A stretch of 64,000 nt of DNA. Source: Planctomycetota bacterium (GTDB taxonomy: Bacteria > Planctomycetota > UBA8108 > UBA1146 > JAJFFE01). The notes beneath the pieces are model-generated. The model was not told where the DNA came from and did not search any database. It saw only the letters and a program-made list of their open reading frames with translations. The stretch covers positions 98,521-162,520 of the forward strand of contig JBFWWP010000004.1 of NCBI GenBank assembly GCA_050246115.1. The letters are read 5' to 3'. Both the position numbers and the translations under genes were made by a program. This document shows, piece by piece, positions 5,962-60,664 of the stretch. The number at the start of each line of letters is the position of its first letter. Position 1 is the stretch's first letter.

Positions 5962-6210
5962 GGGAACCTCTCGTGTTGCGTGACCCGTCGCTCCAACCCG
6001 CAAGTACGAAGCCGCTGCTCTCGCGGTAGGCGGCTATCATGAGCACTGCCGCCCACGGCAACCACAGGCTCGTCGGCGGAGCGGCTCGATCCCGGCGGGC
6101 GTGGATCGAAATGGCCGCCCGCGTACCCCGAAATCCGCGATCCTTCGTGGCCGCGCGGTGCTACAACAGTACTCCCGGAGACGACCCTGACTCAACTACG
6201 GAGTTTACCC

Positions 6211-7416
6211 ATGCACCGAGATGTCCGCCTGGTCCTGATGAATGTCGTCGTGACTTGCATCCTTCTCTGGCTCGGCTCGACCTTCTTCGGCGGGACCGGG
6301 GTGGCTCTGCCGACCGCCCCCGCCCCCGGAATCTTCGTGTGGGGGGATGCCAACTGTGACGGTTCGCTCAACATCTCCGATCCAGTGACGATTCTGGGCT
6401 ATCTGTTCAGCTCGGCGCCGCTGCCTCCGGCATGCGCGCAATCCTTCTTCGCGCCGGACCAACTCGCTACCTTGCAGGAGATCCTCCCACACCTGAGCCG
6501 CGTGGAACTCGACGACGGCCTTGGCGGGACGGTCCCGACGATCCGCCTGACCGGAGTCAACCTGCAGATCGTGAACGGCTCGGGCGCGACCAACGGCAAT
6601 CCGGCAAGTCCAAACAGCGTAAACGGCATGACGAACGGGACCGGCAACTTGATCGTTGGCTACAACGAGTTCGGCACCGGCGGCAACAACCGCACGGGAT
6701 CTCACAACCTGGTCGTGGGCTCGGCGCTGCAGTACGAGCGTTGGGGCGGAGCGGTCTTGGGGCAGGGGAACGTCATCCGCGGCGCGTGGTCGAGCGTGAC
6801 CGGCGGGAACGCCAACACCGCCATCGGGGACTACGCCGCGATCACCGGCGGTCTCAACAACGAAGCTGCCGGCGACTACTCGTCGATTTCGGGTGGGCAG
6901 TTCAATGCCTCGAGCGGAGACATCGGTTGGGTCGGCGGCGGCAATGCCAACGAGGCCGCAGGAGTCGAGTCGTGCGTGTCGGGGGGAGCCAGCAACACGG
7001 CCCTCGGCGCCGCCTCCGCGGTGAGCGGCGGCGAGTTCAACAGTGCGGACGGTGACCGAGCCAGCGTGGCGGGTGGCAGAGCGAACAGCGCGGTTGGGCT
7101 CGGTGCCGTGGTCGTCGGCGGCCAAGACAACTTCGCGGGTGGCGTGCGAGCGGCGGTGTTCGGCGGGCAACGCAACGAGGCCGACGGAACCGCCGCGGTC
7201 GTGGTGGGTGGCGGCGGACCGGATCCGTTCCTGGACGGCAACCGCGCGCTCGGCGACTGGTCGGTGATCACGGGCGGACGCCAAAATGACGCGACTGGCA
7301 ACGGCTCGACCGTCGGCGGTGGACGTCAGAACGTCACCGCTCCCACCGCCGAGTACTCGGTGGTGGCAGGCGGCTGTTTGGAAACGACGTTCAGCCCGTG
7401 CGAGCTTGCCCCGTAG
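6211..7416 (+). CDS. Secreted repeat protein: N-terminal signal/TM, a single dockerin-like half-repeat, then ~14-residue 'GG-x-N-x-A-x-G' tandem repeats (YadA-head / tail-fibre-like)
   Basis: ATG at 6211 with GGAG 7 nt upstream. N-terminus: 'GDANCDGSLNISDPVTILGYLFSSAPLPPAC'. Then 'SVTGGNANTAIGDYAAITGGLNNEAAGDYSSISGGQFNASSGDIGWVGGGNANEAAGVESCVSGGASNTALGAASAVSGGEFNSADGDRASVAGGRANSAVG...'. Ends 'GGCLETTFSPCELAP'. Confidence 0.6.
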   Translation: MHRDVRLVLMNVVVTCILLWLGSTFFGGTGVALPTAPAPGIFVWGDANCDGSLNISDPVTILGYLFSSAPLPPACAQSFFAPDQLATLQEILPHLSRVELDDGLGGTVPTIRLTGVNLQIVNGSGATNGNPASPNSVNGMTNGTGNLIVGYNEFGTGGNNRTGSHNLVVGSALQYERWGGAVLGQGNVIRGAWSSVTGGNANTAIGDYAAITGGLNNEAAGDYSSISGGQFNASSGDIGWVGGGNANEAAGVESCVSGGASNTALGAASAVSGGEFNSADGDRASVAGGRANSAVGLGAVVVGGQDNFAGGVRAAVFGGQRNEADGTAAVVVGGGGPDPFLDGNRALGDWSVITGGRQNDATGNGSTVGGGRQNVTAPTAEYSVVAGGCLETTFSPCELAP

Positions 7417-10543: not shown

Positions 10544-10703
10544 CACCGAGACCAACGCGTGCTGTCGTTCGCTTCGATCCGGAAGCGAAGCACGGTTGCG
10601 GTCGCCGCAGAGTCCAAAAGGCGCGGCTCGTGAAGCTCGAGCGTTCGACGGCGAGTTCATCCAAGCATCGGTCTCGAACGCCGCAGGCGAATGAAGGTAC
10701 GGC

Positions 10704-12380
10704 ATGAGGTCTTGGAGCATGTGGGCAGTTCTCATCGCAGGCTTCGGCTGGGGCACCCCCCTCCTCGGCCAGCCCGGTACCACGATCATCACCCATGGCT
10801 TCCAGTTGGACGGCGTGCTCCCGGCGTGGCCCGCGGTCATGGGTGCCGCGATGGCGCAGCTTCCCCAAGCCGCCGCGCCCACGGGCACCGTCCTCGTGTA
10901 CGACCCGAGCACCGGCGCGTGGTCTCCCGTGTTCGGTTCCGGAGACCCTACCGGGGAGATCGTCTTGATCTTCGACTGGGCCGACGACTCGTCGTGGTTT
11001 CCCGGCGACGACGATCGGCAGGGAACCGCTCATGGGGCGGCCGCCGCCCTCTACGGCGCGCTCCGTGCCCCGCACATTAGCGGCGCCCCGGCAATGACGA
11101 GCTTTCTCGCATGGCCGGGAGGTGCACCTCGACGACTCCACTTCCTGGGCCACAGTCGTGGGACCTGCGTGAACAGCGAGGTAGTTCGTCGACTGGTGGT
11201 CGCGGGCTACACGGTAGACCACGTCACGACGCTGGATCCTCACCCCGTTGGACCGGTGGCCGATCTCCTTGACCCGCAGCCGACCACTTGGGTTGGTGTG
11301 AACTGGGCCGACAACTACTTTCGTCAGGATGACTGTGACCTCGACTACGGTTGTTTCGGGTTCGACTTCGATGGTCAGCAGATCATCGGTGCCGCGAACC
11401 ACGACCTCGGGCTCGACGCCTTCGGACTGATCGACAACCGCCTGAACAGTTGCAGCTTGGAGCACTCCTTGGTGCACACCTGGTATCACGGCACGATCGA
11501 TACCGCGACGGCGTCGGACGGCGACTGTCCGGTCGAGCGTGCCAACTGGTACTTCGCGGGGGGGGTCGGCGAAGGTTACGCCTTCTCGCAGGTCGCGGGT
11601 GGAGCCTCGCAACGTCCCTGTGGTCCGAGCGGCGGGTGCGCGGACGCGGGACGCACCGTCGCGACGCCAGCGTCCCCGATCATCAACGGCGACTTCGAGT
11701 TCGGGGCATTCCAGGACGCGGGATGGCGCTGGCACGGTGGCGGCGGCCCAGGGCGGATCATCGAGGAATCCGGGAACTCCTTCCTGACCCTCGACTCCAC
11801 GGGGCCGTCGCGGACTCACAGTCGTTTCTACCTGGACGTCTTCGCAACGAACCTGCAGTACGACCTACGGGTGTTCGCGCCGGGGGCCGCAGCTTCCTTG
11901 GTGATCACGTTGAGAGAAGCCGGATCGCTCGTCGACCTGCTCATCGACAGCGTCCCGCTCTCGTCTTCGACGTCCTGGAGCGCTCGCAGCGTTGACCTGA
12001 CCAGCATCCCCAAGGGGCGGCTCTACTCGCTGACGGTAGCGCTCACGCCCGCCAACACCTTGGCCATTGCCGACCTGGACGAGTTCGGCCTCGAGTTCGC
12101 GGCCGGACCGCAGTTCTGGCGCGGCGACTGCAACGGCGACGGCGCCATCGATCTCGCCGACGCCGTGGCGGCGCTCAGCGCCTTGTTTGGAGCCGGTGGC
12201 CCGCCGCCTTGTGGCGTCGCTTGCGACGCGAACGACGACGGCACGTTCGACGTGGCCGATGCGGTCTCGACCCTGCTCGCGCTCTTCGGATCGGCGGGTC
12301 CGCTACCGCCCCCCAGTGTCGGCTGCGGACCCGACCCGACCGCAGATGCGCTGGATTGCGCAAACCCGACCTGCCCATGA
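10704..12380 (+). CDS. Secreted alpha/beta-hydrolase (lipase-like, GHSRG nucleophile elbow) with beta-sandwich region and C-terminal dockerin module + Cys-rich tail
   Basis: ATG 10704 with AAGG upstream. Signal-like N-terminus. 'LHFLGHSRGTCV' matches GxSxG. C-terminus: 'FWRGDCNGDGAIDLADAVAALSALFGAGGPPPCGVACDANDDGTFDVADAVSTLLALFGSAGPLPPPSVGCGPDPTADALDCANPTCP'. Confidence 0.75.
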   Translation: MRSWSMWAVLIAGFGWGTPLLGQPGTTIITHGFQLDGVLPAWPAVMGAAMAQLPQAAAPTGTVLVYDPSTGAWSPVFGSGDPTGEIVLIFDWADDSSWFPGDDDRQGTAHGAAAALYGALRAPHISGAPAMTSFLAWPGGAPRRLHFLGHSRGTCVNSEVVRRLVVAGYTVDHVTTLDPHPVGPVADLLDPQPTTWVGVNWADNYFRQDDCDLDYGCFGFDFDGQQIIGAANHDLGLDAFGLIDNRLNSCSLEHSLVHTWYHGTIDTATASDGDCPVERANWYFAGGVGEGYAFSQVAGGASQRPCGPSGGCADAGRTVATPASPIINGDFEFGAFQDAGWRWHGGGGPGRIIEESGNSFLTLDSTGPSRTHSRFYLDVFATNLQYDLRVFAPGAAASLVITLREAGSLVDLLIDSVPLSSSTSWSARSVDLTSIPKGRLYSLTVALTPANTLAIADLDEFGLEFAAGPQFWRGDCNGDGAIDLADAVAALSALFGAGGPPPCGVACDANDDGTFDVADAVSTLLALFGSAGPLPPPSVGCGPDPTADALDCANPTCP

Positions 12381-41621: not shown

Positions 41622-42701
41622 TCACCCGTCGGGCTGGAATGTCCCGACCAGATCGGCGACCCGGAAAATGCCCTCCTCGGCCAGCCAAGTCCGAATCTGC
41701 TCCAGCCATTGCGGCAGACAGGCTGGCTCGCGGTACAAATGCGTTCCCACCTGAACGGCGTGCGCGCCCGCAACCATGAACTCGAGCACGTGCTCCGGGG
41801 CGGTGACGCCGCCGATGCCACAGACGGGGATCTTCACGGCCGTGCTCGCCTCCCACACCATGCGCAGCGCAATGGGGCGGATCGCCGGCCCGGACAGCCC
41901 CCCGGTTGCACGCCCGATGCGCGAGCGGCGGGTCCGCCAGTCGAGCGCCATGGCGCGCAGCGTGTTGATGAGGGACAGCGCGTCGGCGCCACCGTCCTCG
42001 GCTGCGCGCGCCTGCTCCGCGATGTCGGTGACGTTCGGCGTAAGCTTGGCGATCAGCGGCAACCCGGTGCACGGTCGCACCGCCTCGAGGAGCTGGCGCG
42101 TCGCGCGCGGGTCGAGCCCAAAGCGCAGCCCCGCCGTGACGTTTGGACAAGAAACGTTCAACTCCAGGGCGTGGACGGCGGGCTCGGCATCGAGGCGCTC
42201 GGCGAGGTAGCTATAGTCCTCGATCCGGTTGCCGACGATGTTGACGACCACCGGAGCCCCGTAGGCGGCGAGCCGCGGGAGGTACTCGGCGAGGAAGCGC
42301 TCGAGGCCGGGGTTCTGGAGACCAATGGAGTTGAGCAGCCCGGCTGGGGTCTCCACGGTGCGCTGCGGCGGGTTGCCCGGCCGCGGCTCGCGCGAAATGC
42401 TCTTCCCGACGACCGCAGCGAAAGTGCCCGGCGGCACGAACGGCTCGAACTCACGCCCGTATCCAAAAGTTCCGCTCGCCGGCAGGATCGGGTGCGCCAG
42501 CTGGAGCGAACGGTTCGGCCCGTCGATCCGGATCGACAAGTCGACGGTTGGGCCCGCGCTCCCTGGCGCCTCGGCGCGGCCGAGCTCGGACCGCTCACCG
42601 GTCAGAACGACTCTTCCTTCCGCTGGCAATCCACGCAGAACGGAGCCCACGGAATCGCCTTCAGCCGCGCCTTGGGAATGGGCTTCTCGCACATGTCGCA
42701 C
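41622..42701 (-). CDS. pyrD: Dihydroorotate dehydrogenase, class 1 catalytic subunit
   Basis: 'ILPASGTFGYGREF', 'NSIGLQNPGLE', 'LELNVSCPNV', 'GGLSGPAIRPIAL', 'VCGIGGV'. Homology begins around residue ~55 of the track ORF, so the annotated GTG 42701 start is probably too far upstream; it would overlap the dksA-like gene by 100 bp. Confidence 0.85.
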   Translation of the reverse strand: MRHVREAHSQGAAEGDSVGSVLRGLPAEGRVVLTGERSELGRAEAPGSAGPTVDLSIRIDGPNRSLQLAHPILPASGTFGYGREFEPFVPPGTFAAVVGKSISREPRPGNPPQRTVETPAGLLNSIGLQNPGLERFLAEYLPRLAAYGAPVVVNIVGNRIEDYSYLAERLDAEPAVHALELNVSCPNVTAGLRFGLDPRATRQLLEAVRPCTGLPLIAKLTPNVTDIAEQARAAEDGGADALSLINTLRAMALDWRTRRSRIGRATGGLSGPAIRPIALRMVWEASTAVKIPVCGIGGVTAPEHVLEFMVAGAHAVQVGTHLYREPACLPQWLEQIRTWLAEEGIFRVADLVGTFQPDG

Positions 42702-42961
42702 ACCCCGAACGACCCCTCTTGGAGCCGACCCAGGGCGGCGTCGATCTTCTGGATGACATTCCCTTCGCTCTCGAGCAAGCTGAGCGAGAGATCGGCCTCG
42801 TAGGTCTCGGCGCCGAGGTCGGCGCTATCCCCGCCGGAGCCGCTGCCGCCGATGTCACCGACCCCCTGCTCGAGGTCCTGCATGTTGCCGGTGAGGAAGT
42901 GCCGCTTCTGCAAGAGGAGGGAGCTGAACTCGTCGATTTCCTTCTTGGTCATTTTCTTCAT
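42602..42961 (-). CDS. DksA/TraR-family C4 zinc-finger protein
   Basis: Trimmed to 'MKKMTKKEIDEF'. C-terminal 'CDMCEKPIPKARLKAIPWAPFCVDCQ'. Confidence 0.7.
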   Translation of the reverse strand: MKKMTKKEIDEFSSLLLQKRHFLTGNMQDLEQGVGDIGGSGSGGDSADLGAETYEADLSLSLLESEGNVIQKIDAALGRLQEGSFGVCDMCEKPIPKARLKAIPWAPFCVDCQRKEESF

Positions 42962-43255
42962 AGCGAATTCTCGGAGCTTTCTCTGCGGGGGGATCAAAAG
43001 GCCTGCGAAATGCCGCACCTCGAGGCACGCAAGCCAGGGCGAAGACGCCCGGGAGACGACTCACCGGACGAATCTCGCGGGTTGGCGCCAGTCGAGCCGA
43101 TCCGGGATTGCGCATCTGCGCGTCCGCCCTGCACTATATCTTCCAGCAAGGGCTAGAGTTAAGATAACCGCTATCGACTCTTACGACTTCAGGGGAGGAA
43201 TTCTAGGGACCATGTTGGGGCAGATCAACAACGATTTCCCGTTCGTGAGCACGCC

Positions 43256-44167
43256 ATGACGGCCGAGCGTCCCGGCTCCTCGACCCAACCCGAGTCCCGC
43301 TGGATCGTCGAGTTCCTGGACTATGCCACCGTCGAGGCCGGGCTCTCGGACCTCACTCTGGAGGCCTATCGCCGCGATTTGCGCGCGCTGAACGCTTTCC
43401 TCGGCAGCCGGGGCGTCGACCTCGGCGCTGCCGATCGCCACGCCTTGCGAGACTTCGTCGAGAGCCACTCGGCCGACCTCAGCGTGGCGACGCTCCGACG
43501 CCGAATCTCGTCCGTTCGCACCTTCTACCGGTTCTTGTCGAGTGAGGGTCGAGTCGCCCGGAACCCGGCGGAGGACCTGATGTTGCCCAAGACGTGGGCA
43601 CGTCTGCCGATCGTGCTGTCGACGAAACAAGTGTTTGCGCTACTCGAAGCTCCGTCCCCGGCCACCACCAAGACCCCGCTGCGCGACCGGGCCATCCTCG
43701 AACTGTTGTACGGTTGCGGCCTGCGGGTGTCGGAACTCTGCGACCTGGAGCTGCGAGACGTACGTTCCGTAGACGGCTTCTTGAGGTGCCGCGGCAAGGG
43801 CCGCAAGCAGCGCCTCGTGCCCATCGGGGCCAAAGCCGTCGCGGCCTTGGGCGCCTACTTGGAGCGGGAGCGCCCGCGAAACCCCGGGCAGGATTTCGCG
43901 CTCCTGTCGATCCGCGGGCGCCGGCTGGGGCGCGAGCTGATCTTTCGCCTGTTGCGGAAGTACGCCGGACTGGCGGGTCTCGCGGGGTCAGTCTCGCCTC
44001 ACACGCTGCGGCACAGTTACGCAACCCACCTCCTCGAAGGAGGCGCCGGCCTGCGGGAAGTCCAGGAGCTGCTCGGCCACGCCGACATTCGCACGACCGA
44101 GATCTACACGCACGTGGATCGTCACGAACTCAAGAGCCTGCACCGGAAGTACCACCCACGGGGGTAA
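43256..44167 (+). CDS. xerD: Site-specific tyrosine recombinase XerD/XerC
   Basis: 'LRDRAILELLYGCGLRVSEL', 'HTLRHSYATHLLEGGAGLREVQELLGHADIRTTEIYTHV'. Confidence 0.9.
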   Translation: MTAERPGSSTQPESRWIVEFLDYATVEAGLSDLTLEAYRRDLRALNAFLGSRGVDLGAADRHALRDFVESHSADLSVATLRRRISSVRTFYRFLSSEGRVARNPAEDLMLPKTWARLPIVLSTKQVFALLEAPSPATTKTPLRDRAILELLYGCGLRVSELCDLELRDVRSVDGFLRCRGKGRKQRLVPIGAKAVAALGAYLERERPRNPGQDFALLSIRGRRLGRELIFRLLRKYAGLAGLAGSVSPHTLRHSYATHLLEGGAGLREVQELLGHADIRTTEIYTHVDRHELKSLHRKYHPRG

Positions 44168-44244
44168 ACGGTACACCTGGAGTCACGCGGTCGTCCGCGC
44201 ACCTCGCCCTCGGCGAAACGGGATCGGGATCGGTGTTCGCCGGT

Positions 44245-45171
44245 TCAGTACATGCGCTGAGCGTCGGGAACCAGCTCGTAGGCGAGGACCGTGAACCCGA
44301 GCCGAACGTAATCGCCCGAGCGCAAGAGTGCTCGGCTCACCTTCTGGCCGTTCACGACCGTGCCGTTGGCCGAGTTGAGGTCGAGGATCACGTGGCCACC
44401 CTCCACGGCTTCGATTCGCGTGTGGTGGCGCGAGACTTTGCCGTCGTTGAGGACCAGCCCACAGTCGAGCGCGCGCCCAATGAGGAGGGTGGGGCAACCC
44501 GCGAGATCGACGCTTCTGCCCACGTCGCGCGGGTCGCCGTCGATGATGATCAAGCCACAACGCTGGCCGGCCGCGGCCGGGACGGGTTGGGGGGGCGTTG
44601 CGCGCGGGCGCGCCTCGACGTGTGCAGGACTCGTCGCGACGGCGCCCGGCGTCCCTCGGTGCACGGCTGGGTGGTGCGCTCCGGGAGGAGCGGCGTAGCC
44701 GAAGGCCGGCGCCGCCGCGCCGCCGACGGGCGCCATGGGTGGCGGATCGGCCGGCGTCAGCTCGTGCACCTCGGCGTCGGGCACCATCAGGCAGGCCGGG
44801 GTGACGACCGACGATGGAGCGTCCATCCGCACGGGTGCCGGCGCGGGCTTGGCCCCCTTCGGAGTCGGCGGCGAGAACGTGAACTGGAACTCGGTGGTTC
44901 CGAGCCGAATGATCTCGCCCCCCGCGAGCTCACGCTTCTCGACCGGGATGTCGTTGATCGAGCTTCCCTGCTCGGTGTTCAAGTCGAAGAAGGTCCAGAC
45001 CTCGCCCTTGCGATAGATCCGAGCGTGGTGTGACGCGACCCCGGTGTCCTCCAGCACGATCTGACAACCGCTTCCGCGTCCCAGATCGAACACCGAAAGA
45101 TCCTTGAGGACGTAGACCCTGCCCGATTGGGGACCTGACATGAATCTGAGGTAGGCCTTGTCTCTCGACAC
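44245..45171 (-). CDS. Protein with two FHA domains separated by a Pro/Ala-rich linker
   Basis: FHA1 'FDLGRGSGCQIVLEDTGVASHHARIYRKGEVWTFFDLNTEQGSSIND'. FHA2 'LLIGRALDCGLVLNDGKVSRHHTRIEAVEGGHVILDLNSANGTVVNG'. Confidence 0.8.
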   Translation of the reverse strand: MSRDKAYLRFMSGPQSGRVYVLKDLSVFDLGRGSGCQIVLEDTGVASHHARIYRKGEVWTFFDLNTEQGSSINDIPVEKRELAGGEIIRLGTTEFQFTFSPPTPKGAKPAPAPVRMDAPSSVVTPACLMVPDAEVHELTPADPPPMAPVGGAAAPAFGYAAPPGAHHPAVHRGTPGAVATSPAHVEARPRATPPQPVPAAAGQRCGLIIIDGDPRDVGRSVDLAGCPTLLIGRALDCGLVLNDGKVSRHHTRIEAVEGGHVILDLNSANGTVVNGQKVSRALLRSGDYVRLGFTVLAYELVPDAQRMY

Positions 45172-45434
45172 CTTCGCCGCGCGCCCTTTCCTGGGGCAAC
45201 GAGATCCGAGTCACGCTGCGGATCTCTGCCTCCAGAAGATTAGCCCGGCGGCCCGAACGCTTCAAATCGACGCCCCCGGAACGTCTTCACAAGTCCAGGG
45301 GAAAGAAAGGACTTAGATGCGTTCGCGGCAGGCGTCTCGAACCCCTGACCCGGCTCTCCGGAGGCCGCTCCGGGCGAGGTGCCAGGAGGACCCGCCGTAT
45401 CCCCGAGGGGGACGACCGGCGTCGGATCGATTGC

Positions 45435-46691
45435 CTACGGACAGGCGAGGTACGGCGCGGTCGGGTCGGTTCCCGGGGAAGGAAATGGTGCGGCCGGCGG
45501 CACTCCCTCGAGAAACAGGTAGGTGCCGAGGCTCACCGCGTCCGAGATCTGGACCTTGGCGTTGTCATCGACATCGAGCGCGGCGACACAGGGAGGTGAC
45601 GGCATGGCTCCGGTCGCGACGAGCGCTAGCACGACGAGGTCGGAGAGGTCGAGGTGGAGATCGTCGTTCGCGTCCCCCCGCAAGAAGGGGCGCTGGGGAA
45701 TGATCTCGATCACACCGTTCATGAGGAGCGGGCTCACCGACTGCAGATCGATCACGAAGACGTTCTGCACCGGCGGAGTCCCGAAGCCGTCCTCGAGAGT
45801 CACCGCGACCTCGCTCACGGCGATCGCTTCCGGTCGAACCGCGACGACCAGTTGGGCGATGGTCTGAGCCTGTCCGATCGGCGGGATCGACTGGGAATCG
45901 AACGGCGGTAGCAGGTCGAGCAGGATCCCCACCACGAAAGTGCCGAGGGCGTTGTCGATGTTGGCTTCGAAGAACTCCGCGCCCACCGCTTCGGTGATGG
46001 TGCCGTCGATGGTCACGTCTTGACCGATCACGTACGCGGTGTCGAACGCTCCCGAAATCGAGAGTCCTTGAAGATCGTCGGTGTTCACGGCCATGAGCGG
46101 CACCCGGTGACCCTCGACGCCGATTCCGGCCACGGAGTCTCCAACGAAGAGGATGTTTTCATCCGTAACTTCGATCGATCCGTTCGCCACGGCCGCGGGG
46201 ATCTCGACTCCCGCAGCGAGAGCCATGTTGGGCAGGTCACCGGGCGTCGTGCGAAAGTCGACGAACACCAGCGTGCCTGGACTGAGGCCGTTCTCGATCT
46301 CCAGCCTGAGGGTGGCAACCCCCTGGTCCACGCCAACCGGGATCAGGTCGTCGAACGGCGCCAGACTGTCGAGCAGGGAGGTCACGTCGACATGCCCGGC
46401 GCTCGGGTCCACCATGATCCACTGAATCTCCGGGTCGACGCCTGCCAGAACGTCCGCGAGTTCGAAGCCAACGTAGTTCGCCTTGAACGCGTCGTAAGCC
46501 ATCGCGACCTGAAACCCATGGAGCGGGGTCACCGTCGTTACGGTGAGGGGAACCGCGGCGATCGCACCCGGGTAGGTCGTGACTTCCCCGAGTCGAAACT
46601 CGAGGTCTTGTGCACCCACGAAAGCGGGCAGCACACAAGAAACCACGAAGACGGTGCGTGGAACGAGCAGACGCAGTCCTTGGGTGGGCAT
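45435..46691 (-). CDS. Scaffoldin-like secreted protein: signal peptide + two cohesin-like domains + C-terminal dockerin module
   Basis: Trimmed to the ATG at 46691 ('MPTQGLRLLVPRTVFVVSCVLPAFVGAQ'). Domain 1: '...GAIAAVPLTVTTVTPLHGFQVAMAYDAFKANYVGFEL...LVFVDFRTTPGDLPNMALAAGVEIPAAVANGSIEVT'. Domain 2: '...GHRVPLMAVNTDDLQGLSISGAFDTAYVIG...VFVIDLQSVSPLLMNGVIEI'. Then 'RGDANDDLHLDLSDLVVLALVATGAMPSPPCVAALDVDDNAKVQISDAVSLGTYLFLEGVPPAAPFPSPGTDPTAPYLACP'. Confidence 0.65.
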   Translation of the reverse strand: MPTQGLRLLVPRTVFVVSCVLPAFVGAQDLEFRLGEVTTYPGAIAAVPLTVTTVTPLHGFQVAMAYDAFKANYVGFELADVLAGVDPEIQWIMVDPSAGHVDVTSLLDSLAPFDDLIPVGVDQGVATLRLEIENGLSPGTLVFVDFRTTPGDLPNMALAAGVEIPAAVANGSIEVTDENILFVGDSVAGIGVEGHRVPLMAVNTDDLQGLSISGAFDTAYVIGQDVTIDGTITEAVGAEFFEANIDNALGTFVVGILLDLLPPFDSQSIPPIGQAQTIAQLVVAVRPEAIAVSEVAVTLEDGFGTPPVQNVFVIDLQSVSPLLMNGVIEIIPQRPFLRGDANDDLHLDLSDLVVLALVATGAMPSPPCVAALDVDDNAKVQISDAVSLGTYLFLEGVPPAAPFPSPGTDPTAPYLACP

Positions 46692-47440
46692 TGATTGGAG
46701 TCTCCGCTGGGCACTTGGATCCTCCGGGGAAAGCAGTCTCGGTTCAACCGGAGGGGTGGTGCGAGGTCGTTGGGACCGAAGGTCGCGCAAGCGCCCGATC
46801 ATACTGCCGATGCGGGGCCGCGCCAACGTCCTGGACGAATTGACGGTCGGAGGCTCCCGAAGCCGAAGCAGTACGTCGGTCTCGCGCGGCAGCGATGGGG
46901 TGGGTAAGGGACGGAAGCAGAGTGACCGAGGCAGGCGGACCGGAACCAAAAATGGGGGAAGCCCACGAACTCCGGAAGCCCAATCAATGCCCGCCGATGT
47001 GGACCTCTTCGTGACTTCCCCCCCAAGAAAACAGTGCTCCGTTAGCAAGCCAACATCCACATCGGAAGACTATTCATAAGCCAAACTTTGAACTTCTCTT
47101 AGGAACACATCCCGAAATCATCAGAGTCCCCGACGACTCAAATCCGAGCACACGGACCCAGGGATCTCCCTGATGTCGCCGGTGAGGCGCGGACAGGAAA
47201 TCTCCAAGACCTGAAATATTCAGTGCTTAATCGTCGCATACTCAATGCGACGAGACGCGTCGAAACACGACAAGCGACGCCGTTTGGCCCCGGGAAACGA
47301 AGTGAACGGTGCGCTGATTCGTGGCACCGGGTCCCGGACGGGTACGAAATGGACGCGGGTAAGCCACCGTCGGTAGGCGGCCCTTCGGAGGCCCCTGCGG
47401 GAGAATCGGGCTCGACGCCGATGGGGTAAGCGTCGGCCGG

Positions 47441-48832
47441 TCAGGCTTGGATCCGGTACTTGTGCATCAGCCGGTAGAGCCGATTCCGGTCGATCCCGAG
47501 GAGGTCGGCAGCCCGCGTCTTCACCCCGCCAGCAACCTGGAGCGCTCGCATCAGATGGCTTCTGACAATGCTGTCGAGCCGCGGGAACGCTCGCCCGCTG
47601 TCCGAATCCGGAGTTTGAGCCCGAGCCAGGAGATCCGCGGGCAGATCGTCGCGCAGGATCTCGGTCGCGCTCTTGCCGAGGGCGAACGCGCGTTCGATGG
47701 CGTTCTGCAGCTCCCGCACGTTTCCCGGCCAATCGTAGCTCTGAAAAACATCCATCGCCTCGGGGCTGACTCGCTTCGGCGGCACGCGATAAGACTTGGC
47801 GGTGCGGGCCACGAAGTGCTCCACCAGCGCTGGGACATCGTCCACGCGATCCCGCAGCGGCGGGACCTGGATGTTGACGACGTTGATCCGATAGTAGAGG
47901 TCCGCCCTGAACTTGCCCTCCTGGACCAGCTTCGCGATCGGTTGGTTGGTCGCGGTGATGACCCGGGCGCGAATCGGCACGGGCTGGGTCGCCCCCAGCG
48001 GAGTGACCTCTTGCTCCTGGATCGCACGGAGCAACTTGACCTGCAGGTCGAGGTCCAGCTCGGTGATCTCGTCCAGGAACAGGGTCCCCGCTTTGGCCGC
48101 AACGAACACTCCTTCGTGGTCACTGAACGCCCCGGTGAACGTGCCGCGCTTGAAACCGAACAGCTGGCTCTCGAGCAAGCTGCGAGCGAAGGCACCACAG
48201 TTCACGGCCATGTAGGGTCGATCGGCAGCAGCGCTACCGTTGAGACCTTCGGCCTTCAACCCCGCCGTGTGAATCGCACGAGCGATGAGTTCCTTGCCCG
48301 TGCCGGGTTCGCCTTGGATCAGGATGCGTGAGGGCGTCACCGCGACGCGTGCGATCATCTGGAAGATCTCGCGCATCCCGGGGTTGGTTCCGATGATCTC
48401 GCCGTAGCGCCCGTCTTTGACGACCGCAGAGGCGAATTCGGAGTTCTCCGTCCGGAGACCAGCGACCCGGAGCCCCTTGGCGACGCCAACGAGTAGCTCC
48501 GACGGGTGCAGCGGCTTGAGCAAGTAGTCGGAAGCGCCCGCCGCCATCGCCTTCACGGCCGAGCGGACATCCGCATCTGCGGTGAGCACGATGATCGGCA
48601 CGTTCGGCCACGACCGACTCACCTGTTCGATCAGACCGCTGCCACTCGCGGATACGTTCAGGTCGGCGATGACGAGGTCGACGCGTCGCAATTCGAGGCG
48701 TTCGAGCGCTTCCGTTCCGGTGCGGACGGTATCGACGAGATACCCTTCGCGCTCGAGCAGGTCCCGGAAGGTCTCGAGGATGACGGGATCGTCGTCGACG
48801 ATCAGAATGCGGCCCGCTTCGGCTCGGATCAT
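47441..48832 (-). CDS. Sigma-54-dependent response regulator (NtrC family: REC + AAA+ sigma-54 activator + HTH)
   Basis: 'ILIVDDDPVI...DLVIADLNV' REC domain. 'GEPGTGKELIARAIH', 'GAFTGA', 'LYYRINVVNIQVPPLRDR'. C-terminal HTH 'AADLLGIDRNRLYRLMHKY'. Confidence 0.93.
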   Translation of the reverse strand: MIRAEAGRILIVDDDPVILETFRDLLEREGYLVDTVRTGTEALERLELRRVDLVIADLNVSASGSGLIEQVSRSWPNVPIIVLTADADVRSAVKAMAAGASDYLLKPLHPSELLVGVAKGLRVAGLRTENSEFASAVVKDGRYGEIIGTNPGMREIFQMIARVAVTPSRILIQGEPGTGKELIARAIHTAGLKAEGLNGSAAADRPYMAVNCGAFARSLLESQLFGFKRGTFTGAFSDHEGVFVAAKAGTLFLDEITELDLDLQVKLLRAIQEQEVTPLGATQPVPIRARVITATNQPIAKLVQEGKFRADLYYRINVVNIQVPPLRDRVDDVPALVEHFVARTAKSYRVPPKRVSPEAMDVFQSYDWPGNVRELQNAIERAFALGKSATEILRDDLPADLLARAQTPDSDSGRAFPRLDSIVRSHLMRALQVAGGVKTRAADLLGIDRNRLYRLMHKYRIQA

Positions 48833-49861
48833 CGAGTCGCCCCCTCACCACGGGGACGTCTGCGGTCCGTCGCCAACGTACCGTCGAGTGGCGCGACGAA
48901 GGTCTGCCGTTCGCTACGAACGCGCACTTCGTTGCGGGCGCGATGGTCAAGCCCCCTGCACCCACCCCCGAACTCGGAATCACCCGAGCTGGAGGCGTGA
49001 CTTCCCCTAAGCATGACAGAGTCCTCCCGGTGCCCGTGGATCTCGCCTGGCTACCGAACGTGACGCCTGCTGTGCCGCTGCTTCTCGGAGGGGGGATGTG
49101 GAGAATAACACAACCCAAGCCGGTGATAAGGCCTAGATCCAAAAAAGTCGGGCCGAGGAGGGGTGGTGGCGAGGGCGACTCGCTCCCGACCGAGCAACGG
49201 GAGCGAACACACGGGCGGCCAGGACGATCCACACCACGCGCAAGGCCCGGCCGCCCGTTTTCACATGACTCGGTCAGAGGCCGGACCCGACTCCGGGGCG
49301 AGTCGACGCTGCGTCCGGCGGGAGAGCGCCCCGCTTCTTGCGAACGAGGGGGCGCTCGGGCTGCAGAAATGGCAGGGGCGGACGGCCGGTGCTCATCGAA
49401 GCGGGTCGTACCGATTGGCCGTTCGTAGCCCCTATAGGTTCAGTGAAAACAGGCAGCCGGCCTTTTCCTCTTCCAGCACACCAAAACAACAAACCGAGAT
49501 TCCGGCTGCCTGTAGTTCGAAAGTTCTGCTGTTCGAAGCGTCGCGGCGCTCGTCTCGCGCCGCACACCCCTAGCCTCGCACGACGCCGAGTCGTTGGCGA
49601 ACGGCAAACTTTGTCGAGCCGGGAGTCCGGGAATCCCGCCCAAGACAGCCGACTCCGGGCACCCGTGAGCCAACGCTGCCGATCGGAGTCGACGGGCCTT
49701 GAAATCACCGGGCCCGCGCGACACTCTTGACCCACGCGCTCGTGCCGCTTCCGCCCGACACGGTCGACCGGGGGCCGGTCGCCCGCCGCGTCCAGGCCCC
49801 CCGTCTTGGGCCGCCAGACTCGAGAGTCTCGCGCATCGCCGTGCGAGTCGAAGGAAACAGC

Positions 49862-51340
<1,479 letters not shown>

Positions 51341-57751: not shown

Positions 57752-60589
57752 CTACGGACACGGCGGGAAGCTGTTGCAACCCAGACCATCGTTGGTCGGA
57801 TCCGGTCCGCAGATCGGGAACGGCGCCGGCGGCGGAGCTCCGCCACTGAACAGGAACGCGAGGTTCCAGATCGCATCGGCGATGTTCAGATTGCCGTCGT
57901 CGTTCGAGTCGCACGCATCGTCGCACACCGGCGGAGCGGGCACGGTGCCACCGGGGAACAGGAACCCGAGCAATCGGATCCCGTCGGCGATGTCGACCAC
58001 GCCGTCCGCGTTGCAGTCGCCACGAATCAGAGCCTGCACGCCAACAACGGCTTGCGCGGCGGACAACGTGGGATCGTGCTGCGCGGACATGCCTGGATCG
58101 TGGAAACCCGACTGGACCGGGGTATGCACCGCGGAGTGGATCGGGTTGTGGGCCGCGGAGGCCATCGGATCGTGAACCACGGAGAACGACGGATCATGGA
58201 TCGCAGAGTCACCAGCGCTGTGCATGCTGGTCCAGAACGGATCGTGGATCGTCGAAGTCAGCGGCCCGTGCAGCGCACTCTCACCGGGGATGTGAACGCT
58301 CGAGACGCCCGGATTGTGGGTCGCGGACAAGCCCGGATCATGCTGCGCCGAGTTGAACGGCGAGTGTACCGACGACGTGAGCGGATCGTGGTTCGCGGAC
58401 AGCGCCGCGTCGTGGACCACCGACTGCGCGGGGTCGTGCTGCGCCGAAGCCGCCGGATCGTGCATGCCGGACCAGTGAGGATCGTGCACGGTCGAGGTCA
58501 GCGGATTGTGCAACACGCTGTTGGCTGCGTCGTGAACCGACGAGATCGCCGGGTCGTGCGTACCCGAGACCGTCGGGTCGTGCTGATTCGAATTGAACGG
58601 CGAGTGCACGACGCTGATGGACGGATCGTGCTGCGTCGACGTGGTCGCGTCGTGAACGTTGGAGCGGGCCGGGTCGTGAACGACCGACTGCGTGGGATCG
58701 TGCTGCATCGACCAGAACGGGTCGTGCGTGTTCGATCCCAGTGGGTCGTGCTGACCCGACAAGGTCGGCACGTGCACCGTCGAGACCGCCGGGTCGTGGA
58801 TGTCGGACGCCAACGGCCGGTGGACTCCGGACATCAGCGGCGCGTGCACACCGGACACCAACGGATCGTGGTGGTTCGAGTTGAACGGCGAGTGCACCGC
58901 ACTCACCACGGGTACGTGGACTTGCGACAGTCCCGGCTCGTGGATGTTGGTGGTCACCGGGTTGTGGAACTGCGACAACGAGGGGTCGTGTTGCGACGAC
59001 CAGAACGGGTCGTGCACCGCCGAGTTGAACGGGTTGTGGTTGCTGCTGATCCCCGGCTCGTGGATCGGCGAGATCGTCGGGTTGTGGAACGACGACACGC
59101 TCGGACTATGCGTCACCGACTGATCCGGAGCATGGAAGATCGAGTTCAGCACCGGGTGCGAGCCCGACACGAGCGGATCGTGCTGCGACGACAGGGTCGG
59201 AGCATGGAACGGCGACAGCGCCGGGTCGTGTTGGCTCGAGACGAACGGATCGTGTTGAGCCGACATGACCGGAGAGTGCACGGTCGACACTACGGGGTCG
59301 TGCTGCGCGGTCAGGGCCGGGTCGTGCACCGCCGACAAGTTGGGATTGTGCGTCGACGAATCCGCGGCGGTGTGCATGCCGGTCCAGTGAGGATCGTGGA
59401 CGAGCGAGGTCGATGCAATGTGCTGAGAGCTCGGCCCCGGCAAGTGGACGCCGGACACGAACGGGTCGTGGCCGGACCCCGACAAGTTGGGGTTGTGGGC
59501 CGAGAAGGTCGGGTCGTGGCCCGTGGCCGTCAGCATGGGATCGTGCAAGGGCGACAGCGTCGCGTCGTGCTGGCTGGTCACCACTGGGTCGTGGATCGGC
59601 GAGATCGACGGATCGTGCATCGAGGTCCACAACGGATCATGCAGCTGCGAGAACTCCGGCGGGTGAGCTTGGCTCATGCCGGGATCATGCAACGGCGACA
59701 AGCCCGGCACGTGCACCTGCGACACGAACGGCTCGTGCTGGTCGGAGCGAATCGGCGCGTGCATGACCGAAGTCAGCGGCTGGTGCGTGTTGGTCATGGT
59801 CGGATCGTGGACGATCGACTGAGCGGGGTCGTGGGTGCTGGAGATCGCCGTGTCGTGCATGGACGACCAGAACGGGTCGTGGATGTCCGACGTCAGCGGG
59901 TTGTGCAGGCTGCTGCTGGCCGGATCGTGGATCGAGGAGGTCACGGGATCGTGAGTGCCGGACGTCGCGGCGTCGTGCTGCGCCGAGACCATCGGTGCGT
60001 GTACCGATGAGTCGAACGGCTGGTGCACCATCGACTGGTTCGGGTTGTGCAGGATCGACGCCGCGGGTTCGTGGATCGCGGACTGGGCTGCCGTGTGCAT
60101 GCCGGTCCAGTGGGGATCGTGCACATCCGAGGTCAACGGGTTGTGGAGCGTGCTGCTGCCGGGGTCGTGCACGGCGGAGATCGCCGGATCGTGGCCGGTC
60201 GACACGCTCGGGTCGTGCTGCTGGGAGGTCAGCGGTGAGTGGACCGCAGAGTCCAGCGGCGCGTGAATCGGCGACAGGTCTGGATCGTGCAGAATCGACA
60301 CCGCCGGGTCGTGCAACGCCGAGTTCGTGGCCGTGTGCATGCCCGACCAAACCACGTCATGGATGGTCGACGTCAGGGGGTTGTGCAGGGCGCTCTCGCC
60401 CGGGATGTGGACGACCGAAAGCGCTGGGTCGTGCTGAACCGACATCGCCGGATCGTGCTGCGCCGAAGCGCCGGGGTCGTGCAACACCGACGCCACTGGG
60501 TCGTGCGTGGTTTGTGCAAACGAATGCGAGGGCACGCATGCGGCAAACGCGCATACGACTCCCGCGATCACGAGACACTTGCGAAGCAT
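57752..60589 (-). CDS. Secreted protein consisting of ~100 tandem octapeptide repeats (consensus H-D-P-x-x-S-x-x) followed by a C-terminal dockerin module + Cys-rich tail
   Basis: Trimmed to 'MLRKCLVIAGVVCAFAACVPSHSFAQ' (signal peptide) at 60589. Residues ~29-850: 'HDPVASVL HDPGASAQ HDPAMSVQ HDPALSVV ...'. C-terminus: 'LIRGDCNADGVVDIADGIRLLGFLFPGGTVPAPPVCDDACDSNDDGNLNIADAIWNLAFLFSGGAPPPAPFPICGPDPTNDGLGCNSFPPCP'. Confidence 0.8.
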   Translation of the reverse strand: MLRKCLVIAGVVCAFAACVPSHSFAQTTHDPVASVLHDPGASAQHDPAMSVQHDPALSVVHIPGESALHNPLTSTIHDVVWSGMHTATNSALHDPAVSILHDPDLSPIHAPLDSAVHSPLTSQQHDPSVSTGHDPAISAVHDPGSSTLHNPLTSDVHDPHWTGMHTAAQSAIHEPAASILHNPNQSMVHQPFDSSVHAPMVSAQHDAATSGTHDPVTSSIHDPASSSLHNPLTSDIHDPFWSSMHDTAISSTHDPAQSIVHDPTMTNTHQPLTSVMHAPIRSDQHEPFVSQVHVPGLSPLHDPGMSQAHPPEFSQLHDPLWTSMHDPSISPIHDPVVTSQHDATLSPLHDPMLTATGHDPTFSAHNPNLSGSGHDPFVSGVHLPGPSSQHIASTSLVHDPHWTGMHTAADSSTHNPNLSAVHDPALTAQHDPVVSTVHSPVMSAQHDPFVSSQHDPALSPFHAPTLSSQHDPLVSGSHPVLNSIFHAPDQSVTHSPSVSSFHNPTISPIHEPGISSNHNPFNSAVHDPFWSSQHDPSLSQFHNPVTTNIHEPGLSQVHVPVVSAVHSPFNSNHHDPLVSGVHAPLMSGVHRPLASDIHDPAVSTVHVPTLSGQHDPLGSNTHDPFWSMQHDPTQSVVHDPARSNVHDATTSTQHDPSISVVHSPFNSNQHDPTVSGTHDPAISSVHDAANSVLHNPLTSTVHDPHWSGMHDPAASAQHDPAQSVVHDAALSANHDPLTSSVHSPFNSAQHDPGLSATHNPGVSSVHIPGESALHGPLTSTIHDPFWTSMHSAGDSAIHDPSFSVVHDPMASAAHNPIHSAVHTPVQSGFHDPGMSAQHDPTLSAAQAVVGVQALIRGDCNADGVVDIADGIRLLGFLFPGGTVPAPPVCDDACDSNDDGNLNIADAIWNLAFLFSGGAPPPAPFPICGPDPTNDGLGCNSFPPCP
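58045..60505. repeat. 24-bp in-frame tandem repeat array (coding for the HDPxxSxx octads), ~100 units, with a 240-bp super-period
   Basis: On the plus strand 'ggatcgtg' (reverse complement of CAC-GAT-CC = His-Asp-Pro) recurs every 24 nt. The Trp-containing octads (HDPxW[ST][GS]M) recur about every 10 units. Confidence 0.85.
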
Positions 60590-60664
60590 GGAATACCTCC
60601 TCCTCTTTCCTCGTGAACCGCGGCGACGTCCGACAAGGACGAGCGCGCGAGGTCCACGCATCGG

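Follow-up and report, generated by a model that had tools for sequence, protein, structure and literature searches.

What does a secreted protein with two cohesin-like domains and a dockerin of its own do in a planctomycete? Cohesin-dockerin pairing is the textbook route to large bacterial extracellular enzyme machines and has been much re-used in protein engineering; to our knowledge, nearly all work on it has been done in cellulose-degrading Firmicutes. The stretch of DNA analyzed here, a 64-kb (64,000-nucleotide) piece of a Planctomycetota metagenome-assembled genome (MAG) that we call the window, encodes such a protein of 418 aa at 45435..46691 on the minus strand, stop codon included; unless marked otherwise, features given below lie on that strand. 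The initial annotation, reasoning by cellulosome logic, called it an adaptor scaffoldin, one that docks the dockerins of other proteins and is itself docked onto a further scaffoldin. We find the domains to be much as described and favor another reading of what they are for: with a probability of roughly 0.6, the protein is a secreted, scaffoldin-like connector in a cohesin-dockerin system that is not a cellulosome and is typical of uncultured Planctomycetota.

The gene starts at the ATG at 46691, a Met position that is equivalent in all orthologues when these are aligned. A longer ORF of 541 aa opens at a GTG at 47060, which is an unlikely start because the orthologues share the Met start, the signal peptide, and a Gln directly after the predicted cleavage site that is invariant in 6 of 6; the extra stretch would also read through a site resembling a promoter and through a conserved RNA hairpin. 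Residues 1-27 (46611..46691; MPTQGLRLLVPRTVFVVSCVLPAFVGA, followed by QD) read by eye as a signal peptide with a basic n-region, a hydrophobic core, and a small-x-small site, and they have pLDDT below 50 in the AF2 model. The 'VVSC' in this peptide was considered as a lipoprotein signal and rejected, because too short a hydrophobic stretch precedes it and orthologues do not keep the Cys. In NCBI the identical protein (100%) is 'MAG: hypothetical protein AB7O52_04605 [Planctomycetota bacterium]', and the 418-aa version has no Pfam or NCBIfam match even at E ≤ 1; the 541-aa version has none either.

The two domains after the signal peptide are module 1 (residues 28-177, 46161..46610) and module 2 (residues 178-333, 45693..46160). 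They are homologous to each other, and both match the HMM of their own family, module 1 with E = 3 × 10−43. The AF2 model makes module 1 an all-beta domain and gives both modules the nine-stranded flattened beta-sandwich (jelly-roll) of cohesins. Identity to solved cohesins in the structure matches of the model is 14-21%, the nearest neighbors are dockerin-binding type I cohesins crystallized in complex, and the top matches include the ScaA cohesin dyad 3l8q and the ScaC cohesin 4uyp_A. The 418-aa protein does not reach the gathering score of Pfam Cohesin (PF00963) or match any other Pfam family at E ≤ 1; relatives pass the cut-off of 24.1 over the same stretch (P0094 with 28.6 bits and P0025 with 26.3 bits). 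A profile of the whole family, searched against the PDB, finds the Clostridium cellulolyticum cohesin as 2vn5_A and 1g1k_A at E = 4 × 10−4, in an alignment that uses the additional N-terminal module present in three-cohesin relatives. For profiles of module 1 or module 2 singly, the best three or more PDB matches are all cohesins, yet only at E = 0.03-0.4. On the modeled fold, both N-terminal domains are type-I-like cohesins. That the protein has two cohesin-like domains and its own dockerin, as first proposed, is upheld by the predicted folds, and the structure model shows a cohesin fold where a non-cohesin fold would have spoken against the proposal. The better conserved of the two is module 2, the one adjoining the dockerin, which carries the best-conserved motifs of the family (GTITEAVGAEF and LLDxLPPFxxQxIPP, invariant among orthologues) and is joined to the dockerin by a very short linker, IIPQRPF.

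The dockerin with its C-terminal extension occupies residues 334-418 (45438..45692). It is built as type I dockerins are, of two tandem segments, each a 12-residue EF-hand-like calcium loop followed by a helix, with the helices of the AF2 model at 349-359 and 382-394. Loop 1 (D340-D351, DANDDLHLDLSD, 45639..45674) has D/N/D/D/D at positions 1, 3, 5, 9, and 12, and loop 2 (D373-D384, DVDDNAKVQISD, 45540..45575) has D/D/N/Q/D. The Gly that is usual at position 6 is missing from both, being Leu in loop 1 and Ala in loop 2. D340 and D351 do not vary across the family, and D373, D376, and D384 hardly do. In comparison of predicted structures the domain has the dockerin fold, and the family profile matches PDB dockerins at E = 3 × 10−5. 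Pfam Dockerin_1 (PF00404) does not match the 418-aa protein at its gathering score of 22.9; a neighboring dockerin in the window scores 18.2 bits, and the dockerins of relatives pass with 25-33 bits. NCBIfam, in which a 'GC-type dockerin' model had been expected, has no match for any of the dockerin proteins. As read from its residues, this is a type-I-like dockerin with both calcium-binding loops intact.

The dockerin ends in a 21-residue extension (PPAAPFPSPGTDPTAPYLACP, 45438..45500) in which PFPxPGxDPT is conserved and pLDDT is 80-90 in the domain model. The extension contains Cys417, which with Cys368 (in 'PPC') makes the only Cys pair of the dockerin; both are invariant, and a disulfide between them probably clasps the extension onto the domain. 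Such a pair and such an extension (PFPxPGxDPTxxxLxC) set this dockerin apart from cellulosomal ones. The nearest likeness is the dockerin of Ruminococcus flavefaciens ScaA, in which contacts between the N- and C-terminal ends are reported to form an intramolecular clasp that stabilizes the module (PMC3821032). The clasp proposed here, for which conservation is the evidence, would differ in being covalent and in using an added piece of chain.

By its cysteines the dockerin is a subtype distinct from the other three full dockerins of the window, having 2 Cys and lacking the two Cys pairs found there. The initial annotation had seen this in 'RGDAN' replacing 'RGDCN' and in a C-terminal tail without the first Cys, and both observations are correct; its count of four 'RGDCN' dockerins elsewhere comes down to three full ones, the fourth being a single-loop 'GDANCDG' fragment. 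The 'RGDC' and 'ACD' cysteines co-vary (67 dockerins with both, 46 with neither, 12 mixed), and the four-to-six-Cys dockerins of the neighboring proteins would have one or two extra disulfides.

Because cohesins followed by a C-terminal dockerin turn out to be the family default, this build does not mark the 418-aa protein as an adaptor. The module family comprises 1966 clusters at 50% identity (E ≤ 10−3), almost all from Planctomycetota MAGs. In a scan of 170 proteins, made up of 150 listed representatives and earlier homologues, 141 have cohesins and a C-terminal dockerin, and in related loci 83 of 91 cohesin ORFs do. Two to three cohesins and then a dockerin is the standard arrangement: CCCD accounts for 68 of the 170, CCD for 34, and xCCD for 23, and the few members with no dockerin may be on truncated contigs. 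Other genomes have tandem arrays of 4-5 family genes. The family is large, unannotated, and largely missed by current domain libraries.

Besides the half-dockerin, the window has three other dockerin proteins, of GSDH/PKD, alpha/beta-hydrolase-like, and His-rich repeat type; all three are secreted and end in a dockerin closely related to that of the 418-aa protein. The dockerin-bearing C-termini other than its own belong to proteins at 2803-6033 (minus), 10695-12377 (plus), 57755-60664 (minus), and 6043-7413 (plus). Dockerins in the window outnumber cohesins by four and a half to two. There is no CBM, and the dockerin proteins of the window are not cellulases; the context is not cellulosomal. 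In related genomes, dockerins are found on LTD+CotH proteins, PQQ propellers, trypsin+PPC proteins, a dihaem oxidoreductase, and TIG repeats, and in one such genome a three-cohesin family member adjoins two dockerin proteins.

If the 418-aa protein is the connector that we propose, then after export each of its two cohesins would bind, in a calcium-dependent manner, a dockerin carried by some other secreted protein, and its own dockerin would be received by a cohesin on yet another member of the family. The result at the cell surface would be extracellular proteins joined in chains or networks, and not a cellulase complex. The assignments of partners to cohesins and dockerins are predictions throughout. 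Should the modules bind as predicted, part of the planctomycete secreted proteome would be organized into surface networks unrelated to cellulose, and the family would be a source of new, possibly orthogonal, disulfide-stabilized cohesin-dockerin pairs.

Of the other explanations, the strict form of the adaptor hypothesis fares best and is still unlikely. It would have the cohesins bind only the 'RGDCN' dockerins of cargo and the 'RGDAN' dockerin dock onto a separate anchoring scaffoldin. What stands from the initial annotation is that one protein, here a secreted one, has both cohesins and a dockerin, and several observations suit a hierarchy: within the window only the 418-aa protein has the 2-Cys dockerin, the three cargo-like proteins having the 6-Cys type; all syntenic orthologues retain the 2-Cys type; the isolated dockerin is matched best in Foldseek by that of ScaB (4uyq_B), an adaptor scaffoldin; and related genomes have 2-7 further cohesin proteins, among which both dockerin types are found, so a hierarchy would be possible. 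The organism may have two cohesin-dockerin specificities. What does not stand is the 2-Cys dockerin as a tag of adaptors, since in related genomes it is often found on proteins that look like cargo (LTD+CotH, trypsin-like, PQQ propellers, dihaem oxidoreductase). Residues at the usual recognition positions 10-11 of each repeat are also similar in the two types, LS and IS in the dockerin of the 418-aa protein versus IA, IS, LA, and VA in the others of the window. Finally, the 64-kb window has no second cohesin ORF and no anchoring protein, whether a cohesin without dockerin or one with a membrane or cell-wall anchor.

Among the closest known systems are cellulosome adaptor scaffoldins such as Acetivibrio cellulolyticus ScaB and Ruminococcus flavefaciens ScaA/ScaC. 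Like the 418-aa protein, they are single secreted chains in which cohesins stand in tandem and a dockerin is C-terminal, and both module types have type-I-like folds. They differ in that their hosts are Bacillota and this one is a Planctomycetota MAG, in that the 418-aa protein has no CBM, X-module, or SLH domain, and in that the dockerin-bearing proteins here are not glycoside hydrolases.

It is quite improbable that the cohesin-like modules do not bind dockerins at all, and instead form a rigid beta-sandwich stalk or bind a glycan or other envelope component, with the dockerin anchoring in a calcium-dependent manner to something other than a cohesin. Archaea and the glycoside hydrolases of Clostridium perfringens (2xdh_A, 2vo8_A, 2w1n_A) show that cohesin folds are not confined to cellulosomes, and the conserved GTITEAVGAEF and LLDALPPFDGQ of module 2 are not tied to a known dockerin-binding face. 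The surplus of dockerins over cohesins in the window also counts for this reading, except that dockerins normally exceed cohesins in cellulosomes too. Against a stalk, cohesins are tightly associated with this dockerin type in the lineage, usually within one protein, and it is the dockerin-binding type I cohesins that the model most resembles. The non-cellulosomal cohesins, Archaeoglobus fulgidus 2xdh and the C. perfringens toxin-complex cohesins 2vo8, 2w1n, and 2o4e, score below cellulosomal type I cohesins against the structure model, and each is a lone module in an enzyme or a small protein, as opposed to the lineage-wide family of multi-cohesin proteins with a dockerin seen here.

Very improbable is homotypic binding, in which the dockerin would occupy a cohesin of its own chain, leaving a self-capped and inactive or structural protein, or of another copy, giving homopolymer fibers: a pTM of 0.68 for the three-domain chain suggests defined packing of at least some domains, both module types are present in almost all members of the family, as a self-polymerizing unit needs, and the cohesin adjoining the dockerin is the best conserved, but the short linker makes docking in cis on that cohesin's binding face sterically doubtful, and the many dockerin-only proteins would be left without a receptor.

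The connector reading has a precedent in the 'planctosome' hypothesis for freshwater Planctomycetes, in which cohesins and dockerins with no cellulose link are proposed to build an extracellular multiprotein complex (Andrei et al., ISME J 2019, PMC6461901). The parts of that model, itself hypothetical, are an LTD protein of 2,210 aa that serves as the anchor and has one cohesin, an adaptor built as dockerin-HYR-cohesin that bears both module types, and M12B/M14 peptidases with dockerins (PMC6461901). The likeness lies in cohesin and dockerin proteins of Planctomycetes in a non-cellulolytic context (PMC6461901) and, in genomes related to the source of the window, in dockerin-bearing lamin-tail-domain proteins and peptidases. 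The differences are that the arrangement here is cohesin-cohesin-dockerin with no HYR domain, that the cargo in the window is another, and that the LTD proteins of the related genomes bear a dockerin and not a cohesin. None of the planctosome-specific architectures (LTD-cohesin anchor, dockerin-HYR-cohesin adaptor, M12B/M14 peptidases) is found in the window.

Upstream of the gene, Pfam and NCBIfam identify a sigma-54-dependent response regulator with REC, AAA+, and HTH_8 domains at 47441..48832, syntenic in at least 12 genomes. The initial annotation had described it as co-oriented and separated by a gap of about 750 bp with an AT-rich island; the gap is 749 bp, and GC within it dips to 0.46-0.47 at 47000-47150, the overall value being about 0.66. 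A functional link of the regulator to the cohesin gene has weak support because the synteny may be inherited, the gene has a predicted promoter of its own, and the sigma-54-like site of the gap fronts an RNA candidate. As to the first, the order purF / RR / gene / FHA / xerD / dksA / pyrD is kept in at least 12 genomes, and the linkage may be simple inheritance within a housekeeping block. As to the second, the gene would be transcribed from a sigma-70-like promoter, TTGGCG-17-TATGAT (46798..46826), which is a match to consensus only; similar promoters are present in orthologous loci (TTGGCA-17-TATCAT in L006, TTGTCG-16-TAGAAT in L003, and TTGTCG-16-TAAAAT in L016). As to the third, a weak -24/-12 element (TGGATGttggcTTGCT, 47044..47059) retains the GG/GC core and the spacing, with 3 mismatches to TGGCAC-N5-TTGCW, and a search of the gap with at most 2 mismatches finds no site; orthologous loci have far better sites, such as TTGGCAC-N5-TTGCC, before the same RNA.

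The RNA itself is a candidate structured small RNA of about 90 nt at 46939..47030, directly downstream of the sigma-54-like element. It is shaped as a long hairpin with interruptions, whose apex is an invariant GGCGGGC, and a U-run follows it. It scores 58.5 bits (E = 7 × 10−14) against a covariance model, shows compensatory changes in 12 of 15 pairs, and has an MFE z-score of -3.0. Across 86 sources (937 kb) it is found only at the same position in the gap, and 2 metagenome contigs that share the synteny have it as well. When metagenomes were scanned with a 17-mer from the apex, at least 120 stretches matched; 2 of 80 loci searched with the covariance model are real copies, and the remaining matches are chance, as the database size predicts. 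Rfam has chance-level matches only in the gap of the window and in that of L013, and comparing the gap with other loci shows no conserved ORF and no nucleotide similarity beyond the RNA element. If real, the RNA would be among very few regulatory RNAs proposed for Planctomycetota.

There is a hint that this RNA could pair with the start region of the cohesin gene. In this genome, 13 of the 14 bases around the start codon could base-pair with its apical loop (GGCGGGCAUUGAUU / AAUCAAUGCCCACC), and the predicted pairing has z = -3.2 in the window and fails in most of the orthologous loci. Taken at its widest, the locus might belong to a phylum-wide system in which nearly every scaffoldin is also cargo by virtue of a disulfide-clasped dockerin, the whole self-assembles into an extracellular network, and in this lineage the conserved two-cohesin member is in addition controlled by the small RNA, a previously undescribed one that the neighboring sigma-54 regulator would drive, a picture that we hold to be improbable. 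A network of that kind would display oxidoreductases, hydrolases, proteases, and metal-binding repeat proteins.

The gene lies on the minus strand with its ORF ending at 45435 and its ATG at 46691, giving 418 codons with a GC3 of 0.76, as is usual for genes of the window. A mechanical ORF list places the start farther upstream, at a GTG (47060), which is very improbable because the equivalent Met is the start in all 6 close orthologues, each of which begins with a basic-hydrophobic signal peptide with a small-x-small end and then an invariant Gln, and because the extension would cross both a site resembling a promoter and a conserved RNA hairpin. The product is identical to an entry from a Planctomycetota MAG whose sole annotation is "hypothetical protein", and a Pfam and NCBIfam scan of it gives no match, even at E ≤ 1.

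A database search yielded 24 relatives, and their alignment was the input for an AlphaFold2 model with a mean pLDDT of 87.5 and a pTM score of 0.68. In it, two all-beta domains (approximately residues 30-176 and 180-331) precede a C-terminal two-helix domain. Its best Foldseek match is the cohesin dyad of an adaptor scaffoldin, 3l8q (E = 8 × 10−13, 365 aligned columns). Hence the initial call of two cohesins plus a dockerin holds, the N-terminal domains having the cohesin fold rather than some non-cohesin fold. A comparison with hhalign shows the two cohesin modules to be homologous (probability 99.8, E = 3 × 10−28). Modeled alone, the dockerin (residues 333-418) reaches pLDDT 93 and its 32 best Foldseek matches are all dockerins, with type II X-dockerins matching poorly. 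Both Ca loops retain their ligands, D340/N342/D344/D348/D351 in the first and D373/D375/N377/Q381/D384 in the second, and neither has the Gly that is usual at position 6. Against the PDB, the family profile scores E = 3 × 10−5 to dockerins and E = 4 × 10−4 to a C. cellulolyticum cohesin; profiles of the single modules have only cohesins as top matches, at non-significant E-values. The protein itself is below the Pfam thresholds for Cohesin and Dockerin and has the fold and the motifs of both, and relatives of the same modules pass the thresholds for Cohesin and Dockerin_1. It is through these relatives that the protein is tied to both module families.

The reading best supported, to which we give a probability of about 60%, is that of a secreted connector in a non-cellulosomal cohesin-dockerin system; intact modules, a family that carries them, and dockerin-tagged neighbors are shown. 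The two cohesins would capture dockerins in a Ca-dependent manner, the protein's own dockerin, probably held by a disulfide clasp, would insert into a cohesin of another family member, and a network would form at the cell surface. Cellulosomal adaptor scaffoldins share this module logic, but host, cargo, and dockerin details differ here. The "planctosome", an untested proposal for freshwater Planctomycetes (PMC6461901), has the phylum and the non-cellulose context in common, with a different parts list. Cohesin-dockerin assembly proteins are already well known as a kind, and their presence in Planctomycetes has been noted before; what is new is the size and uniform build of an unannotated family, its apparently cysteine-clasped dockerin with a C-terminal extension, and its conserved genomic setting.

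An exhaustive search with a profile of module 1 gives 1966 representative clusters at E ≤ 10−3, 161 of them at E ≤ 10−30, and among GTDB species representatives the matches come nearly always from MAGs of uncultured Planctomycetota or Planctomycetia. HMMs of the three modules were run against 150 representatives among the matches listed which, with the earlier homologues, make 170 proteins. In this set, three cohesins plus a dockerin are found in 68, two cohesins plus a dockerin in 34, and N-terminal extra domains followed by two cohesins and a dockerin in 23, the remainder being mostly fragments or longer arrays. The extra domains are Big_5 and FG-GAP propellers, SdrD-B repeats, or choice-of-anchor I. 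Since cohesins with an own dockerin are the norm among the proteins scanned, that architecture does not mark a special adaptor, as the initial annotation had taken it to do. In related Planctomycetota MAGs (loci L032, L034, and L036), 4-5 family genes stand in tandem arrays with the dockerin Cys subtypes mixed. In loci L005 and L010 a three-cohesin subfamily has a second conserved location, where it comes after rpoA-rplQ and a gene for a peptidyl-prolyl isomerase, and in L005 dockerin proteins follow it.

The window has 4 full copies of the dockerin-plus-tail domain and 1 single-loop fragment. The dockerin alignment has one invariant Cys pair, formed by the PPC between the repeats and a Cys close to the C-terminus, which follows the conserved extension PFPxPGxDPTxxxLxC. 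A second pair, the Cys of RGDCN and that of ACDxNDDG, behaves as a unit in 113 of 125 dockerins from cohesin-bearing relatives, where either both residues occur or neither does, as would be expected of a disulfide. The disulfides in these dockerins are inferred. In the three other full dockerin proteins of the window, CGxDPT and the terminal CP supply a third pair, and the protein under study has the invariant pair only; its divergent tail and RGDAN motif had been described accurately. Every syntenic orthologue retains this 2-Cys subtype, as a strict adaptor with two separate specificities might be expected to do, yet in the genomes of these orthologues the 2-Cys dockerin is found on cargo-like proteins too, which weakens the idea of an adaptor-specific specificity and leaves that version of the adaptor unlikely.

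Within the window, cohesins occur in this protein only, and we find several candidate partners for it. The first (2800..6033, minus strand, ~1077 aa) joins a PQQ-type glucose/sorbosone-dehydrogenase beta-propeller and a PKD domain to a 6-Cys dockerin. The second (10695..12380, plus strand) is a secreted protein with a C-terminal beta region and a 6-Cys dockerin, whose only Pfam match is a sub-threshold one to Dockerin_1; its HFLGHSRGT motif, with a GxSxG nucleophile elbow (GHSRG), suggests an alpha/beta hydrolase. The third (57752..60664, minus strand) is a secreted His-rich protein of ~945 aa ending in a 6-Cys dockerin and made up nearly throughout of ~105 copies of an octapeptide H-[DNAS]-P-x-x-S-x-x with a 24-nt period, within which HDP[HF]W[TS][GS]MH recurs. 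Its His content suggests metal binding; its only Pfam match, Cornifin, is spurious. A protein at 6043..7416 (plus strand) has, close to its N-terminus, one dockerin-like Ca loop with a helix (GDANCDGSLNISDPVTILGYLF), then long Gly/Asn/Ala-rich repeats, and no full dockerin module. In related genomes this dockerin forms the C-terminus of lamin-tail plus CotH proteins, PQQ propellers, a trypsin-like peptidase, a dihaem oxidoreductase, and proteins with TIG repeats, and dockerin proteins adjoin three-cohesin relatives; no cellulase or CBM was seen among dockerin-bearing proteins of the window and the related genomes. Genomes with an orthologue of the gene have 2-7 more cohesin proteins, among which both dockerin subtypes occur. 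The cohesin-like modules might instead bind ligands other than dockerins, which we think rather improbable. Intramolecular or homotypic use of the modules is the least probable reading.

Returning to the genomic setting of the putative connector, the order purF (minus strand), sigma-54 response regulator, cohesin-dockerin gene, double-FHA protein, xerD (minus strand), dksA, and pyrD (window 41622..51340; related loci L003, L011-L025, and L146) is kept in at least 12 Planctomycetota species-level genomes. Because the whole housekeeping block is conserved, the adjacency of regulator and gene says little about functional coupling. Across these genomes the cohesin-dockerin protein has 32-40% identity versus 45-69% for its neighbors, and by this measure evolves much faster. 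A sigma-70-like promoter, TTGGCG-17-TATGAT, lies ~105-135 nt upstream of the ATG (46826..46798, minus strand), and the same arrangement recurs in several orthologous loci, including L006:56-84 and L003 at about 9753-9780.

Alignment of the gap among orthologous loci has a conserved element of ~90 nt, a long interrupted hairpin in which a G-run pairs with a C-run and inner stems close an invariant GGCGGGC apex, followed by a U-run. The window copy (47030..46939, minus strand) is inside the AT-rich island. Others are at L003:9451-9539, L016:5393-5482, L025:5215-5303, L018:2642-2725 and 2837-2920, L146:2402-2490, and L124:2607-2695, as well as in L012-L015 and L024 (3 copies), always between the regulator and the cohesin-dockerin gene and on their strand. 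A covariance model of 8 copies, run against 937 kb of window and loci, matches in that position only, including copies outside the model-building set, among them the 3 tandem copies in L024; 2 metagenome contigs have the same regulator-RNA-gene order, and Rfam gives no match. Compensatory changes are seen in 12 of 15 pairs, and pairing is 89.7% versus 75% in shuffles and 65-71% in slid controls, both flattered by an alignment fitted to the model. Single-sequence folding gives z from −2 to −3.2 in 5 of 6 copies. In the window, the apex GGCGGGCAUUGAUU (46982..46995, minus strand) is complementary to 13 of 14 bases of AAUCAAUGCCCACC (46682..46695, minus strand), a stretch that includes the start codon of the cohesin-dockerin gene (duplex energy −30.2 kcal/mol, z = −3.2); in most orthologous loci this pairing does not exceed chance, and we regard it as a hint that is so far unexplained rather than as a finding.

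A sigma-54-type site TTGGCAY-N5-YTGC stands 15-85 nt upstream of the element in 7 of 10 copies, with such −24/−12 sites in L003, L012-L016, L018, L024, and L146. The gap of the window has no sigma-54 consensus with ≤2 mismatches allowed, and a weaker site, TGGATG-N5-TTGCT, with 3 mismatches (47059..47044, minus strand). The simplest reading of this arrangement suggests a candidate small RNA driven by the adjacent orphan sigma-54 regulator, much as LuxO drives the Qrr RNAs and GlrR drives GlmY.
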